From assembly GCA_045652135.1 (NCBI GenBank), contig JAZRTS010000055.1, positions 7,881-71,880 on the forward strand: a stretch of DNA of 64,000 nucleotides, in the 5' to 3' direction. The DNA comes from Eubacteriales bacterium (GTDB taxonomy: Bacteria > Bacillota > Clostridia > Oscillospirales > CAG-272). Both the position numbers and the translations under genes were made by a program. Of the stretch, positions 34,900 through 43,692 are shown piece by piece (position 1 is the stretch's first letter; each line of letters opens with the position of its first letter). The notes below the pieces were generated by a model, which saw only the letters and a list, made by a program, of their open reading frames with translations, ran no database searches and was not told the DNA's origin.

Positions 34900-35766
34900 T
34901 TATATTTTCTCAATGAGATCTGCGGCTTGTTCCATATAGTCGCCTTCAAAAAGCTCAATGGTGCCAAGGTCGCAAAGCTTTGCAAGCGAGGGATCTATCG
35001 GTATTTTTGCAAGTGTGGGAACGCCGAGGGCTTCAGCTTCCTTATCCACGCGGCTCTCACCGTATATTTCGATGCGCTTTCCGCAGTCGGGGCAGTTGAG
35101 ATAACTGAAGTTTTCAACAAGTCCTATTATCGGAATATTCATCATTTTAGCCATTGTGGCAGCCTTGCCGACGATGACGGAAACAAGCTCCTGCGGGGAA
35201 GTTACAATTACAATACCGTCAACGGGGAGCGACTGGAATACCGTCAACGGTACGTCGCCGGTGCCCGGAGGCATATCGACAAACATGAAGTCTACCTCGC
35301 CCCAGAGAACGTCTGACCAGAACTGTTTTACGGTTCCTGCAATTACGGGACCTCTCCATATAACGGGTGTTCTTTCGTCTTCAAGTAAAAGGTTTACGGA
35401 CATTACTTCCGTTCCCATTTTTGTTACGAACGGAAATATACTTTCTCCGTCGCCCTCGCAGATGCCGTGAAGACCAAACGCCTTCGGTATTGACGGGCCT
35501 GTAATGTCAGCATCAAGTATCGCTGTGCGGAAGCCTCTGCGCTGCATAACAGTTGCAAGCATAGAGGTCACAAGTGATTTTCCGACACCGCCCTTACCGC
35601 TGACGATGCCGATTACTTTTTTTACATGAGAGTGCTTGTTCTGCGGTTCAAACTGAGGCTTTGCCTTGGATGAACAGTTCGCAGAGCAAGACGAACAGTC
35701 ATGCGTGCATTCTTCATTTGACATAATTATCACGCTTTCTAAATTTAATGTTTCATTAAATGACAT
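34900..35766 (-). CDS. Mrp/NBP35 (ApbC) family Fe-S cluster carrier ATPase
   Basis: 'GKGGVGKS', N-terminal Cys-rich 'CTHDCSSCSANC', 'CPDCG'. Start could instead be ATG 35724. Confidence 0.88.
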   Translation of the reverse strand: MSFNETLNLESVIIMSNEECTHDCSSCSANCSSKAKPQFEPQNKHSHVKKVIGIVSGKGGVGKSLVTSMLATVMQRRGFRTAILDADITGPSIPKAFGLHGICEGDGESIFPFVTKMGTEVMSVNLLLEDERTPVIWRGPVIAGTVKQFWSDVLWGEVDFMFVDMPPGTGDVPLTVFQSLPVDGIVIVTSPQELVSVIVGKAATMAKMMNIPIIGLVENFSYLNCPDCGKRIEIYGESRVDKEAEALGVPTLAKIPIDPSLAKLCDLGTIELFEGDYMEQAADLIEKI

Positions 35767-35833
35767 TATATACCCTAATTTCGTTTTAACGGTTAAGTTA
35801 TTATATATAAATTTTAAATTTATAGGTTATCAT

Positions 35834-36796
35834 ATGAAATTAACGCAAAAAGATAAAAATCCATTTGTATATTCCGATTCGAATAAAAGATATCATACTT
35901 ATGATTACTACATAAAACATAAATTCGGGAAAAAGTGCGCCAAAATTCCGCTTGACTGCGGATTTACTTGCCCGAATATAGACGGCACGGCAGGATACGG
36001 CGGTTGTATATATTGCTCCGACAGGGGATCGGGCGATTTTGCGGCTGAGCCGAGTTTGACCGTTAAAGAACAGCTTGACAAAATGCGCACCGTTATGGAA
36101 CATAAATGGAAAAACTGCGGTATCATACCGTATTTTCAAGCGCATACGAATACGCACGCGCCGCTTTACGTCTTGAAAGAAAAGTATGAAGAAGCTCTTT
36201 GTTATCCGGATGTTGTTGGTGTTAATATTGCAACACGTGCTGATGCGCTTCCCGATGATGTGTGTGAATATCTCGGTGAAATAGCAGAGCGAACGGTACT
36301 GACCGTTGAGCTTGGACTTCAGACGGTACACGACAGTACGGCAAAGCTCATAAACCGATGCCACACAACAGAGGATTTTTTAAAAGGGTATCAGAAGCTG
36401 CGAAAAACAAGCGACAAAATAAATATATGCGTTCATCTGATAAACGGTTTGCCGTATGAAACGTATGATATGATGATACAAACCGCTGAATACGTTGCAA
36501 GTCTTGCGCCCGAATTTGTAAAAATACATTCACTTCACGTTTTGCGTGGCACGCCGCTTGAGAAAATGTATGCGGACGGTAAATTTGCTGTGCTTTCTCA
36601 GGATGAGTATGTCGGTATCACCGTATCACAAATAGAGCGTTTGCCCGAAAAAACCGTCGTGGCGAGAGTTACGGGTGACGGAGCTAAAAATGCACTTGTA
36701 GTACCTCTTTGGAGTATTAAGAAAACGTGCGTGATAAATGAAATTGACAAGGAGCTTTACAAAAGAGATACGTATCAGGGGAAGCTTTTAAAGTAA
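35834..36796 (+). CDS. TIGR01212-family radical SAM protein
   Basis: 'CPNIDGTAGYGGCIYC' cluster motif. ATG 35834 chosen because the longer ORF start at 35666 overlaps the divergent Mrp gene. Confidence 0.85.
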   Translation: MKLTQKDKNPFVYSDSNKRYHTYDYYIKHKFGKKCAKIPLDCGFTCPNIDGTAGYGGCIYCSDRGSGDFAAEPSLTVKEQLDKMRTVMEHKWKNCGIIPYFQAHTNTHAPLYVLKEKYEEALCYPDVVGVNIATRADALPDDVCEYLGEIAERTVLTVELGLQTVHDSTAKLINRCHTTEDFLKGYQKLRKTSDKINICVHLINGLPYETYDMMIQTAEYVASLAPEFVKIHSLHVLRGTPLEKMYADGKFAVLSQDEYVGITVSQIERLPEKTVVARVTGDGAKNALVVPLWSIKKTCVINEIDKELYKRDTYQGKLLK

Positions 36797-36801
36797 AATA
36801 C

Positions 36802-36827
36802 AAAAAAGCCTCAATGAGGCTTTTTTT
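36802..36827 (+). terminator. rho-independent terminator
   Basis: AAAAAAGCCTC-aat-GAGGCTTTTTTT, 6 nt after the stop codon. Confidence 0.7.
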
Positions 36828-37096
36828 GTGCCATAAAATAAATTGTATTTTGAATATCAAAAAAGACACCTTATGTTTTTGCAGGAAAATAATGGCAAAA
36901 TATGTGAATGAATTATGAAACGTGATACGAAATTTAAATTCAGCTATTGACTGTATATTTTGAATATGTTAACACTATAAATTTATACATTCACAAAATA
37001 TATTTTGTTTATAAATACGATATGGAATTTAATTTTTTAAATAACTATAATTACCATAAAAGATAAAAAAATACAATTAAACCAAATGGAGTAAAT

Positions 37097-38118: not shown

Positions 38119-38949
38119 TTACAGTGTATTTAGCCGCTGGCCCATAAGTACGGGTGTTTCAATGCCTTCTTGTGTGGCATCAAACAGCTCTTTATTTATA
38201 TTTGTGCCTTTTGGAAGCAAGAGTATGACTGTGCTTCCGCCGTACAAAAACATTCCTTTTTCTTCACCTTTTTTTACGGTGCTTTCATCGGTGCGGTGAT
38301 TATGTATTTTGCCGACGAGCAGGGCGCCGACCTCCATTTGAACAATATCTCCGAATTTGTCTGTTTTAATTACGGTATACTCTCTGCTGTTTTCGGTAAA
38401 TACAGGTAACGCTTCAAGTGCTATCGGTCTTACCGTGTGAAGCTTTCCTTTAATAAAAACGTTTTTTTCTTTAATTCCGTCTGCAGGATAGCAATATCTG
38501 TGGTAATGATGTACGCAAAGCCTGAAGACAAGGCATATCCCGTCTTTGTATTTATCGGCAAGTGCATCATTATTGAGCAAAGAGGGAATTGTATACAGAC
38601 TCTGCTTCACGGGCAAAACCGTATCACCGTTTATTTTATACGCACTCAAAAGCCCGTCACACGGTGAAGTGAGCGCAGAGCTGTCAGTATCTACCACACG
38701 GCGTCCGTCCTTTATCTTACGGCAAAAGCAGTCGTTGAAGCACTTGAAATTATCTGCCTCGTAATCTGAAAGGTCTATATTATTCTTTTTTACAAACGTG
38801 GATATAAGGGGCTTTGAAAGACGGCAATCAAGAAATTTGCCGCATATCTTTGAAACGAAAGGGGATGAAAGCGGTTTTAAAATTAATCTGCCCGGGGCAG
38901 TTTTATAAAGAAAATTAAGCGTTCTTCCGTCACTGTTTTTTACTGCCAT
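38119..38949 (-). CDS. psd: phosphatidylserine decarboxylase proenzyme
   Basis: 276 aa with the self-cleavage motif 'LYGGSTV' near the C-terminus. Confidence 0.92.
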   Translation of the reverse strand: MAVKNSDGRTLNFLYKTAPGRLILKPLSSPFVSKICGKFLDCRLSKPLISTFVKKNNIDLSDYEADNFKCFNDCFCRKIKDGRRVVDTDSSALTSPCDGLLSAYKINGDTVLPVKQSLYTIPSLLNNDALADKYKDGICLVFRLCVHHYHRYCYPADGIKEKNVFIKGKLHTVRPIALEALPVFTENSREYTVIKTDKFGDIVQMEVGALLVGKIHNHRTDESTVKKGEEKGMFLYGGSTVILLLPKGTNINKELFDATQEGIETPVLMGQRLNTL

Positions 38950-38962
38950 ATAATACTCCGAA

Positions 38963-40042
38963 TCATTTATCGTTACGTATTTTTTCTTTGTGTGCTTTTT
39001 TTCTCAAAAAGATATATCTTAAAAGAATAGAAAATCCGCAAATGAATATGCAGAAATAGAATGAAAGGAAACGCGCCAGAAGATCAAGGTGTACTGCCTG
39101 GCTTTTCGTCATTATAGAACAAAATCCGTTGATCGTTATAGAGTCGTAAATGCCAACGCCTCCGGGTACGGGAACGGTGTTTGCGCCGAGTACGGCATAT
39201 GCCTGTAAAAACCATATGTCAACGGCTTCTGAAAACGATTTTCCGATAGTAGCCATATATACGAACGAGCTGACCGCAATCTGTGATATGCGCTGCAAGA
39301 AATTCAACAGAAACGCAAGCCACATTATTTTTTTGTGACGGATAATTATCTTGATACATTTACGGTAATTGTCCATATGTGTATCTAATTTTTGCTGTCT
39401 TGCTTCTTCGTTTTTAAGGATACGTATTTTACAAAGAAGGTGTATACACCATTTGCATATACGGTGTAAAAGCTTTCTGTTAATGAGAAGCATAAGCAAG
39501 AACGAAGCAAGGAACAGCTGGCATACGAAGCCGACGGTGATAAAGATTCTTGCTGTTACACCGTACGACATGAAAATATCGAATTTGAATATGAAACAAA
39601 TAATTCCGATAGCCAGAACGGATATAGTATACATAAAAAGGTTAAGCAACAGCGCGGCGGTTGTCATTACCCCTGATATCCCGTCCTTGACCATAAAATA
39701 TGCGCTTGCGGGCTGACCGCCGGTGGCAGACGGTGTGACGGCTGAGAAATATATATCCGCTGCAGAATATATAAATCCGTGTCGGATTTTTGTTTTATAA
39801 CCGAAGCCGCGGCATATGACGGTCAAAGCCATACCCTCAAAAACGATGAACATCACCATACTTAAAACAGAGGTAAATATCCATTCGGGAGATGCCGTTC
39901 TTATATAAGTGAAAAATTCACCAAAGGAAAAGTCCTGGCTTACCCATATTATCAGAAATATGCTCAAGAGAGCTATCAGTACGAAAATAAGAGTAAACAG
40001 AACGTTTTTATTTTGAAATAGGCGCAATAATTTATTTTTCAT
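38963..40042 (-). CDS. UPF0104 / lysyl-PG-synthase-TM-region (flippase-like) membrane protein
   Basis: 359 aa, polytopic, with a 'VPVPGGVG' motif typical of this family. Confidence 0.78.
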   Translation of the reverse strand: MKNKLLRLFQNKNVLFTLIFVLIALLSIFLIIWVSQDFSFGEFFTYIRTASPEWIFTSVLSMVMFIVFEGMALTVICRGFGYKTKIRHGFIYSAADIYFSAVTPSATGGQPASAYFMVKDGISGVMTTAALLLNLFMYTISVLAIGIICFIFKFDIFMSYGVTARIFITVGFVCQLFLASFLLMLLINRKLLHRICKWCIHLLCKIRILKNEEARQQKLDTHMDNYRKCIKIIIRHKKIMWLAFLLNFLQRISQIAVSSFVYMATIGKSFSEAVDIWFLQAYAVLGANTVPVPGGVGIYDSITINGFCSIMTKSQAVHLDLLARFLSFYFCIFICGFSILLRYIFLRKKAHKEKIRNDK

Positions 40043-40055
40043 TTACAATGTTACC

Positions 40056-40721
40056 TTAAAGTTTAACTTGAGCTGAGAATCGGTTGAATATCTTCCACAC
40101 GGAGAAACGTTTTGAAATAAACGCTGATATTTCCACGAAAAGCACACCTGCAATTATATCTATAAAAAAGTGCTGTTTTACTAAAACCGTGGATGCAAAA
40201 ACGAAGATGGTGAGAATTAATTGAAGAACAGGGTACCACTTCGGTGAATTTTTCATCATAAGCGAACCGCGGAAGCACAGCCAACTCGTTACACAGTGCA
40301 TTGACGGAAACAGATTCACGGGTGTATCAAGAGTATAAATAAGTTTAGTTATGTTGTCAAAAATACTGTTTCCGACTATTTCGGGACGTACGATAGACGT
40401 TGGTATTGCTAAAAAGCATATCATGCCGAATATGTTTGCGATAACGTCAGTGGTAAGAATATGATAGCACGCATCTTTATCGGCGTGGCAGTGATATACG
40501 TATGAAAAAAACCACTGTATGTATGCCAGAACGTAAAACAGTATGAAGAACGGCACGAACGGTATGACATCGTCAATAGGAAGTGAAAGGTCGTAGTGCG
40601 TATGGTCTTCTGTTACGAGCTTTGTGAAAAAGTACTGTGAATATCGGAATATGATGGTTATGGCAAGCGGAATGATCGCATATTCAGGCAGTATATAATA
40701 TATCCGTTTTTTAAATCCCAT
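40056..40721 (-). CDS. PAP2-superfamily membrane protein (Aur1 / sphingomyelin-synthase-like head-group transferase type)
   Basis: Polytopic, with 'FPSMHCVTSW' and 'KQHFFIDIIAG' resembling the SxH and HxxxD motifs of PAP2_3/PAP2_C proteins. Confidence 0.7.
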   Translation of the reverse strand: MGFKKRIYYILPEYAIIPLAITIIFRYSQYFFTKLVTEDHTHYDLSLPIDDVIPFVPFFILFYVLAYIQWFFSYVYHCHADKDACYHILTTDVIANIFGMICFLAIPTSIVRPEIVGNSIFDNITKLIYTLDTPVNLFPSMHCVTSWLCFRGSLMMKNSPKWYPVLQLILTIFVFASTVLVKQHFFIDIIAGVLFVEISAFISKRFSVWKIFNRFSAQVKL

Positions 40722-43063: not shown

Positions 43064-43089
43064 AAAAAACGGCACGAATCTTCGTGCCG
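43064..43089 (-). terminator. attenuator terminator in the aroF leader
   Basis: CGGCACGA-agat-TCGTGCCG followed by TTTTTT, located between the leader ORF and the aroF RBS. Confidence 0.65.
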
Positions 43090-43123
43090 CTAAAACCCTT
43101 AATTATATATTGGGATGAAAAAT

Positions 43124-43213
43124 TCAGCAACACAAAGAACTATTACCTCTAAAGCAAAAGCAAAAGTAATAGTAAAAGTATGTAGCTGTAAAGCAAAACT
43201 TTTTCATTTTCAT
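43124..43213 (-). CDS. candidate Phe/Tyr-rich leader peptide (29 codons)
   Basis: MKMKKFCFTATYFYYYFCFCFRGNSSLCC. AGGGG lies 4 nt upstream of the ATG. Not in the ORF track because it is shorter than 60 aa. Confidence 0.55.
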   Translation of the reverse strand: MKMKKFCFTATYFYYYFCFCFRGNSSLCC

Positions 43214-43411: not shown

Positions 43412-43487
43412 GATCCATTAGCTCAGAAGGTAGAGCACTTGACTTTTAATCAAGGTGTCCGGAGTTCGACTCTCCGATGGATCACCA
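43412..43487 (+). tRNA. tRNA-Lys (anticodon UUU), CCA encoded
   Basis: Hand-folded cloverleaf: acceptor GATCCAT/ATGGATC, D arm GCTC/GAGC, anticodon arm CTTGA-CTTTTAA-TCAAG, T arm CGGAG-TTCGACT-CTCCG, discriminator A, CCA. Confidence 0.95.
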
Positions 43488-43490
43488 GAA

Positions 43491-43519
43491 AAGCGACAAG
43501 GTTTTCTTGTCGCTTTTTT
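43491..43519 (+). terminator. terminator after tRNA-Lys
   Basis: AAGCGACAAG-gtttt-CTTGTCGCTT followed by TTTT. Confidence 0.8.
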
Positions 43520-43523
43520 AATT

Positions 43524-43670
43524 AAATTCGTTCTTCGAACAATGAAATATTGCTTCGCAATACGAAATACGCTTTGCGTATGAAATGTGCTTACGGCACG
43601 TTAAAGAACGAATTTTATTTCATCTGAAGCTGTTAGGCTGAAGATTTCATCCTGCAACGCAGGATTTCAT
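43524..43670. repeat. heptamer/palindrome array enclosed by a 12-bp inverted repeat
   Basis: ATGAAAT/ACGAAAT x3 in forward orientation, ATTTCAT x3 in reverse, alternating with short palindromes. Outer inverted repeat AAATTCGTTCTT (43524-35) / AAGAACGAATTT (43604-15). Confidence 0.6.
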
Positions 43671-43692
43671 TTCTTTATACACAATTTCCTCA

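Follow-up and report, generated by a model that had tools for sequence, protein, structure and literature searches.

In the 64,000-nucleotide stretch of an Eubacteriales genome analyzed here (contig JAZRTS010000055.1; hereafter, the window), the genes aroF and pheA, coding for DAHP synthase and chorismate mutase-prephenate dehydratase, are preceded on the minus strand by a short open reading frame (sORF) rich in Phe and Tyr codons and by an intrinsic terminator. Very probably, the aroF-pheA operon is controlled through this leader by ribosome-mediated (leader-peptide) transcription attenuation responding to the levels of charged tRNA-Phe and tRNA-Tyr. Attenuation of the pheL/trpL style had been proposed for this locus in an initial annotation, and every prediction of that proposal that is testable at the sequence level was borne out. 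From the anatomy of the leader, its conservation in relatives, the conservation of its reading frame and the structure statistics described below, we infer ribosome stalling, read-through and the identity of the regulating amino acid(s).

The leader ORF occupies positions 43213-43124 of the minus strand and comprises 29 codons, from the ATG at 43213-43211 to the TGA at 43126-43124, encoding MKMKKFCFTATYFYYYFCFCFRGNSSLCC. Six Phe and four Tyr codons are packed into codons 6-21; this segment (F6-F21, 43198-43151, region 1), which also includes three Cys, two Thr, and one Ala codon, is the presumed ribosome stall site. The Shine-Dalgarno (SD) sequence AGGGG (43222-43218) is located 4 nt before the ATG at 43213 and 10 nt before a second ATG at 43207. 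The ORF, its AGGGG and its Phe and Tyr content agreed to the base with the initial annotation. The closest relative of the window locus, L001, was found in an Eubacteriales metagenome-assembled genome (MAG); its AroF is 93% identical, and the arrangement of the tRNA-Lys gene, leader, and aroF-pheA is the same. The first ATG is missing in L001, whose leader begins at the position corresponding to 43207, 7 nt after a GAGGG; therefore, the real start in the window may also be the second ATG, giving a predicted peptide of 27 codons (MKKFCF...). On both strands of the 64-kb window, the leader is the sole sORF with at least eight aromatic residues in 12 codons. The fold of the 207-nt window leader has a z-score of -3.6.

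The leader ORF is followed by an intrinsic terminator hairpin on the minus strand (43091-43068; AGCGGCACGA-AGAT-UCGUGCCGUU), for which the scan found 10 pairs, 6 of them GC, and a loop of 4 nt, with an energy of -15.8 to -16.2 kcal/mol. Its 5' arm (43091-43082) and 3' arm (43077-43068) are referred to as regions 3 and 4, respectively, and the T6 tract, recognized both by eye and by the scan, is at 43069-43064. The 8-bp inner stem (CGGCACGA-agat-TCGTGCCG, 43089-43070), which begins 34 nt after the leader stop codon, had been noted earlier together with the following TTTTTT, the aroF ribosome-binding site (RBS) and the ATG; all of these were recovered, and the scan lengthened the hairpin to its present limits. 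The gap between the terminator and the aroF ATG is about 30-34 nt and contains just the RBS. Because the terminator is so close to this ATG, aroF must be reached by terminator read-through.

The terminator can be replaced by an alternative structure. The segment CUUUGUGUUGCU (43137-43126) pairs with AGCGGCACGAAG (43091-43080) at 12 consecutive positions, 9 of them Watson-Crick and 3 G-U, as had been claimed and as was verified by hand and with RNAduplex (-12.7 kcal/mol, z = -3.9 relative to dinucleotide shuffles). This helix extends to 16 bp, joining 43138-43123 with 43094-43079, and the isolated hairpin has an energy of -21.0 kcal/mol. Its 5' strand, the core of region 2 (43138-43123, minus strand), overlaps the last codons of the ORF and the stop codon. 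The earlier account of the structure was correct with regard to this antiterminator (2:3) and the terminator (3:4) and missed a third element, a strong 1:2 hairpin at 43188-43125 of the minus strand (-22.3 kcal/mol), in which the aromatic codons at 43188-43160 pair with region 2 at 43155-43125. The minimum free energy (MFE) structure of the naked window RNA consists of the 1:2 hairpin and the terminator, and with the 1:2 hairpin the three-hairpin architecture of classical attenuators is complete. With a ribosome footprint placed in the middle of the aromatic run, the MFE structure turns from terminator to antiterminator, in line with the claim that the two are mutually exclusive.

The following course of events would be expected. 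Transcription would begin just upstream of the short ORF, with its predominance of Phe and Tyr in codons 6-21. If the RNA is not translated, region 1 would pair with region 2, and the 3:4 terminator would form, stopping transcription ahead of aroF. With an ample supply of Phe and Tyr, the ribosome would reach the stop codon at 43126-43124 and its footprint would cover region 2 (43138-43123), or the 1:2 hairpin would re-form behind the ribosome; in either case, the terminator would form again. A shortage of Phe-tRNA or Tyr-tRNA would make the ribosome stall on the aromatic codons and open the 1:2 hairpin, leaving region 2 free because the latter begins about 15 nt past the last Phe codon. The freed region 2 could then pair with the 5' arm of the terminator (16 bp, -21 vs -16 kcal/mol), allowing read-through into aroF-pheA. 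The geometry of the leader is compatible with both ribosome positions: the last Phe codon is at 43153-43151, so that region 2, beginning at 43138, is just past the leading edge of the stalled ribosome, and a ribosome with UGA in the A site covers 43141-43112, the whole of region 2. Ribosome states were simulated with transcripts ending short of region 4; for the window, the sequestration of the terminator 5' arm was 1.00 with the ribosome stalled vs 0.13 with the ribosome at the stop codon. The earlier suggestion that a ribosome at the stop would cover the antiterminator strand and a stalled one would free it fits both the geometry and this simulation.

A scan of GTDB genomes for AroF yielded 80 loci, or 81 with the window, of which 6 belonged to Bacteroidaceae and 75 to Clostridia. 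For the most part, the loci came from Clostridia that have not been cultured, among them Eubacteriales, Oscillospiraceae, Lachnospiraceae, Acutalibacteraceae, Ruminococcus, Sporobacter, Emergencia/Anaerovoracaceae, Faecalibacterium, Angelakisella, Pseudoflavonifractor, and others. A leader, defined as an ATG-started sORF with at least six F/Y/W residues in 12 codons located no more than 300 nt upstream of aroF, was found at 63 of the 81 loci; only 2 of 81 had one on the reverse strand, and shuffled sequences yielded it in 1.4% of cases. The aromatic sORF was absent in all six Bacteroidaceae loci. Four extra leaders (L026, L045, L069, and L080) had GTG starts, a weaker run, or a position farther upstream of a pheA-aroF-tyrA operon. 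Leaders of the family contain 8-13 aromatic codons; MKRNIFAAEYFYFYFINKS and MSLFVFAAAYFYFYFIMTRSKSDLCCK are typical peptides of the relatives, and the consensus of the aromatic run is FAAEYFYFYF. Phe is encoded by UUU in 85% of cases in the leaders vs 48% in aroF. The leaders of L045 and L075, from Faecalibacterium and Lachnospiraceae MAGs, are Tyr-only (ARYAYYYVLY and RFGYYYYYVLC) and are located about 150 nt upstream of aroF; judging from such sequences, the codon mix of the leader may differ between lineages.

The reading frame is conserved along with the codons. When the (UWY)n run was located independently of ORFs at 67 loci, an in-frame ATG preceding any stop codon was found upstream in the aromatic frame of 64 loci, and in only 6 and 7 of the 67 in the other two frames. 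An SD sequence of at least 4 nt precedes the leader start at 61 of the 67 loci vs 26% of all ATG trinucleotides. Translation of another frame had to be considered, since in the +2 frame the aromatic run of the window reads as nine consecutive Leu codons, and a TTG-started Leu-run ORF (LLYSYILLLLLLLLL, 43196-43149, minus strand) could make the leader a Leu sensor. This ORF has neither SD nor ATG in the window, the frame is ATG-open in just 6-7 of the 67 loci and is not conserved as an ORF in the relatives, and the candidate was rejected by the frame test; the Leu codons are a by-product of the U-rich codons. Assignment of the leader to a T-box, the usual amino acid sensor of Firmicutes, or to another known leader, such as Phe_leader (RF01859) or Leu/phe leader (RF01743), was considered along with Leu sensing. 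The cmscan search of the window leader against Rfam 15 at E-values up to 10 gave no match, including RF01859, RF01743, and the T-box RF00230, and 11 canonical relatives contained no leader family or T-box at E-values up to 1, which upholds the initial statement that no T-box is present. The 18 loci without leader likewise yielded nothing, including no T-box, at gathering thresholds. Taken together, a known leader type or Leu sensing is an extremely improbable explanation.

The peptide itself is not conserved in the way the RNA is. Its C-terminus is not kept as protein across the family, and its length varies with the frame: the stop codon is located 5-20 nt upstream of region 2 at 30 loci, often within the conserved GGUAAUAG, and downstream of region 2 at 31 loci, giving ...NSDLCCK, whereas conservation of the RNA motif GUAAnAGUGAUUUGUGCUGCAA extends through the whole family. 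Judged from these sequences, a variable C-terminus over conserved RNA is what would be expected of an attenuator, not of a functional micro-protein. The sORF does have a start codon, an SD sequence, and a terminator like any small gene, so that it could be imagined as an independent gene for a hydrophobic micro-protein with its own terminator, aroF being served by its own promoter. This is hardly credible: the peptide varies over conserved RNA, the terminator arm is complementary to the 3' end of the ORF, and the gap between terminator and aroF leaves little room for a promoter, both in the window and in most of the family, where the distance from the end of the terminator to the aroF ATG is 14-131 nt overall and less than 80 nt in 52 of 63 cases. 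The tRNA-Lys(UUU) gene upstream of the window leader (43412-43487) is transcribed divergently, and the terminator therefore ends no upstream minus-strand gene.

The secondary structures proposed for the attenuator were found across the family. A terminator hairpin with a T-run follows the sORF in all 63 leaders, with energies of -10 to -28 kcal/mol, and compensatory changes were observed at 10 of 10 pairs of the main helix and at 2 of 3 loop-side pairs. On an unbiased MAFFT alignment of the leaders (A1), 78.5% of cells were paired in the 1:2 and 3:4 helices vs 38-47% in slid controls, and the covariation score of these helices was 0.367 vs 0.197, a value of 0.367 being reached in none of 500 shuffles. 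Repeated on 22 independent sequences, the 1:2 and 3:4 pairing amounted to 87%. The 1:2 duplex has a median energy of -23 kcal/mol in the family (z = -3.1). At the column pair 89/135, U-A occurs in 19, U-G in 18, and A-U in 10 sequences. Here, where the Phe codon UUU has become the Tyr codon UAU, region 2 carries the compensating A/U change in GUAAnAGU; the instance in the window is the pairing of ACUAUUAC with GUAAUAGU.

Such strong conservation of the 1:2 hairpin at the nucleotide level, together with the UUU bias of the leader Phe codons, which shows an RNA-level constraint, would also fit a structured leader whose switching depends on a bound protein or small ligand, as with TRAP, PyrR, or a riboswitch. 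Recognition would involve either the 1:2 hairpin or the UAC/UUU repeats, and the ORF would be incidental and dispensable. However, the UUU bias could just as well result from pairing with AAA in region 2, and a ligand or protein switch leaves unexplained the in-frame ATG at 64 of 67 loci (vs 6-7 of 67) and the SD at 61 of 67. In addition, no Rfam family matched, and the identity of the codons, Phe and Tyr, fits the regulated pathway. A switch of this kind is quite unlikely.

The antiterminator is strong in the window and moderately supported across the family. In the common register (columns 144-156 with 277-284), 72% of the 2:3 positions were paired vs 23-51% in slid controls, and none of 500 shuffles reached this level. 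A targeted test of region 2 against region 3 was significant at 63 seed loci, with a median duplex energy of -11.6 kcal/mol (z = -2.8), and duplexes formed within a locus were more stable than those between loci (-11.8 vs -8.5; 0 of 200 permutations). In the ribosome-state simulation, the median sequestration of the terminator 5' arm in the family was 0.66 with a stalled ribosome vs 0.51 for naked RNA and 0.51 with the ribosome at the stop codon (Wilcoxon, 8e-8 and 5e-5 for stalled vs naked and stalled vs at-stop, respectively).

Several observations weigh against attenuation by a stalled ribosome. A first, broad 2:3 test, in which the whole spacer was compared with the terminator arm, gave a median z of only -0.7, with just 27% of loci beating dinucleotide shuffles, and outside the window the 2:3 duplexes are modest, their median energy being roughly -9 to -12 kcal/mol. 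Among the 22 independent sequences, which are metagenomic and of low diversity, the 2:3 pairing is a near-invariant core of 4-6 bp (CUGC:GCAG) with flanking G-U pairs; here, the duplex energy was about -8.5 kcal/mol, no covariation above shuffles was found, and the targeted test was not significant. When the simulated footprint (30 nt) was placed at the very last Phe codon of the window, the outer 1:2 stem could still be drawn across the ribosome. The aromatic run of the window is broken up by the three Cys codons, and the leader is missing at 7 of the 75 Clostridia loci. Finally, a consensus scan revealed no convincing consensus promoter in the window leader region. A candidate extended -10 element, TGtTATTAT, was read from the sequence at 43246-43238 of the minus strand; it is weak, was not called by the consensus scan, and aligns with TGTTACGAT in L001, and tentatively it would place the start of transcription at about 43231-43229, a short distance ahead of the SD of the leader. 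An alternative candidate promoter is a conserved block, TTTACC-17-TCTTAT, read by hand at 43291-43263 (minus strand).

A covariance model (R1) was built on A1 and applied to 26 metagenome contigs fetched with a short exact pattern, among which it revealed 20 further copies of the leader. The remaining six, L082, L085, L092, L094, L096, and L105, were chance pattern matches with no sORF and were undetected by R1. The model found nothing in the Bacteroidaceae loci; of the extra leaders, L069 and L080 were detected, L026 was detected weakly, and L045 was not detected. A second R1 match in the window (36797-36926, minus strand; 28 bits, E = 0.037) was discarded as a false positive since it contains no aromatic sORF. 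The match falls in an AT-rich spacer that follows a gene at 35666-36796 of the plus strand and contains a bidirectional terminator (AAAAAAAGCCTCATTGAGGCTTTTTT).

Most of the metagenomic copies lie before AroF homologues. In the 63 leader loci, the gene after aroF is tyrA, coding for prephenate dehydrogenase, in 52 cases, aroB in 6, and pheA in 2, the order aroF-pheA being limited, among the leader loci of the genome set, to the window and L001. The description of the element as an aroF-pheA leader holds for the window, and the family is basically one of aroF(-tyrA) leaders, the pheA partner being peculiar to the window lineage. The order pheA-aroF-tyrA was observed at L026 and L054, and at L026 the aromatic sORF is located upstream of pheA. 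The Phe:Tyr ratio of the leaders was 0.64 before pheA (n = 2), 0.73 before aroB (n = 6), and 0.51 before tyrA, values that are suggestive only, as samples of 2 and 6 are too few. The codon mix, Tyr-only in the Faecalibacterium type and Phe-enriched before aroB and pheA, may adapt the specificity of the leader to the branch encoded downstream.

Two of the metagenomic copies precede other genes. The leader at L083:3311-3451 (minus strand; R1 score 106.5 bits, peptide MSILVFAAAYYYFYFIYSVSKSDFCCN) is followed by genes for a paaK-like AMP-ligase and an iorA-like TPP/ferredoxin oxidoreductase, with no aroF, which suggests that a predicted arylacetate-to-arylpyruvate route belongs to the same regulon as the aroF leaders. 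The leader at L093:1622-1775 (minus strand; 61.5 bits, MKRLDSVLSSFYYYFYFYADAKK) precedes genes for a PF04392 ABC substrate-binding lipoprotein and a permease, and this ABC system is a candidate for the uptake of Phe and Tyr. We take both the paaK/ior genes and the PF04392 system to be plausible routes of aromatic amino acid supply.

These contexts bear on the signal that is sensed. A translated sORF could report general translation stress, caused by antibiotics, the stringent response, or slow decoding of a hydrophobic peptide, instead of the supply of Phe and Tyr. Ribosome-mediated attenuators of Firmicutes often sense antibiotics (PMC4191407), and aromatic-rich nascent chains could slow ribosomes themselves. 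Nevertheless, the contexts are almost exclusively genes of aromatic amino acids (aroF with tyrA, aroB, or pheA; paaK/ior; the PF04392 transporter), and the conserved trait is the density of aromatic codons, not a specific arrest peptide, which makes a general stress sensor very unlikely. As to the wider role of attenuators sensing Phe and Tyr, we lean slightly towards the view that this uncatalogued family is ancient and that the supply of aromatic amino acids in gut and rumen Clostridia is governed mainly by its members, reading Phe and Tyr codons and controlling a regulon of aroF with tyrA, aroB, or pheA, the paaK/ior genes, and the PF04392 transporter.

The organization of the leader corresponds to that of pheL-pheA and trpL of Escherichia coli: an SD sequence, a short ORF containing a series of regulatory codons, the 1:2, 2:3, and 3:4 pairings, a stop codon within or adjacent to region 2, and pheA (chorismate mutase-prephenate dehydratase) among the controlled genes. 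It differs in that the window family shows no similarity in sequence and no match to the Rfam Phe_leader or Trp_leader, the window leader mixes Phe and Tyr codons while pheL has Phe codons only, the first controlled gene is that for DAHP synthase, and the host belongs to Clostridia. A leader peptide with Phe and Tyr codons before the DAHP synthase gene aroF is also described for aroR of Corynebacterium glutamicum, where, as summarized in PMC11802643 citing Neshat 2014, read-through rises on Phe limitation and Tyr is reported to be without effect (PMC11802643). According to the same summary, aroR has an actinobacterial host and a Phe-Tyr-Phe triplet, in contrast to the 8-13 aromatic codons of the Clostridia family. 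Homology of the two leaders is unlikely. Unlike aroR, the Clostridia family has Tyr codons and a tyrA partner that suggest sensing of Tyr.

A further close published candidate is uORFC-13-1 (Brewer et al. 2021, PMC8632094), a motif of an upstream ORF plus terminator found exclusively upstream of aroF. Its 24 reported examples come only from Acholeplasma and unassigned environmental sequences and codes for "at least one" Phe (PMC8632094). Like the window leader, it is located upstream of aroF and has an RBS, a start codon, a Phe-coding U-run, an adjacent intrinsic terminator, and an extra base-paired element; it is also a computational candidate for attenuation and comes from a Firmicutes-related lineage. 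The motif is missing from Rfam 15. The features described for it were found in the window leader, the comparison being made with the published description only. Within Firmicutes, leader peptides were first noted for hisS/hisZ of bacilli, including Bacillus cereus (PMC2965389), and later work added the his operons of Erysipelotrichales, Clostridioides difficile and its relatives (PMC9413887) and the branched-chain amino acid (BCAA) operon ilv-leu of Staphylococcus aureus and Listeria (PMC5794164, PMC5864092); the Rfam Leu/phe leader (RF01743) comes from Lactococcus (PMC2864571). The His and BCAA leaders share with the aroF leader the ribosome-mediated attenuation of amino acid genes within the phylum and differ in the amino acids, operons, and sequences involved, as well as in their narrow taxa as opposed to the many Clostridia families observed here. 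In view of the published His and BCAA leaders of Firmicutes and the uORFC-13-1 motif of Acholeplasma, the initial remark that such attenuation would be unusual for this lineage was overstated. In the full-text literature outside subscription papers, no account was found of an aromatic leader peptide preceding aroF in any of the Clostridia, and the family of aromatic leaders appears to be uncatalogued.

The Clostridia aroF leader is a new and widespread member of a well-known type of regulator, and its mechanism is classical; the understanding of attenuation itself is unchanged by the finding. If the proposed function is true, many abundant gut Clostridia would control the entry into the shikimate pathway by ribosome-mediated attenuation and not by the T-box or TRAP mechanisms that are assumed for Firmicutes. 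About 90 examples would then be available as a new cis-regulatory family for Rfam and genome annotation. The leader would also serve as a regulon marker for neighboring genes, such as the candidate Phe/Tyr ABC transporter and the paaK/ior aromatic source, and could provide a natural Phe/Tyr-responsive switch for the engineering of anaerobes.

The initial assignments of the two downstream genes were supported by Pfam. The aroF gene (43033-42032, minus strand), preceded by the SD sequence GGGAG read at 43048-43044 of the minus strand, encodes DAHP synthase (PF00793, 5e-76) with an N-terminal ferredoxin-like domain (PF18152, 3e-20). The pheA gene (42025-40883, minus strand) starts 6 nt past the aroF stop codon and encodes a chorismate mutase-prephenate dehydratase with an ACT domain (PF01817, PF00800, PF01842).

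Directly after the tRNA-Lys(UUU) gene, two matches to Gut-1 RNA (RF01706) were found: one at 43519-43591 of the plus strand, with 51.0 bits vs the gathering score of 50, and a partial inverted copy at 43612-43677 of the minus strand, with 30 bits. Gut-1 has been reported solely from human-gut metagenomes, and its function is unknown (PMC2864571); it is missing from L001. On the 3' side of pheA, genes for a PAP2 phosphatase, an LPG-synthase-TM family protein, and phosphatidylserine decarboxylase are located at 38119-40721 (minus strand); they probably constitute a separate membrane-lipid unit since pheA is followed by a gap of 161 nt.

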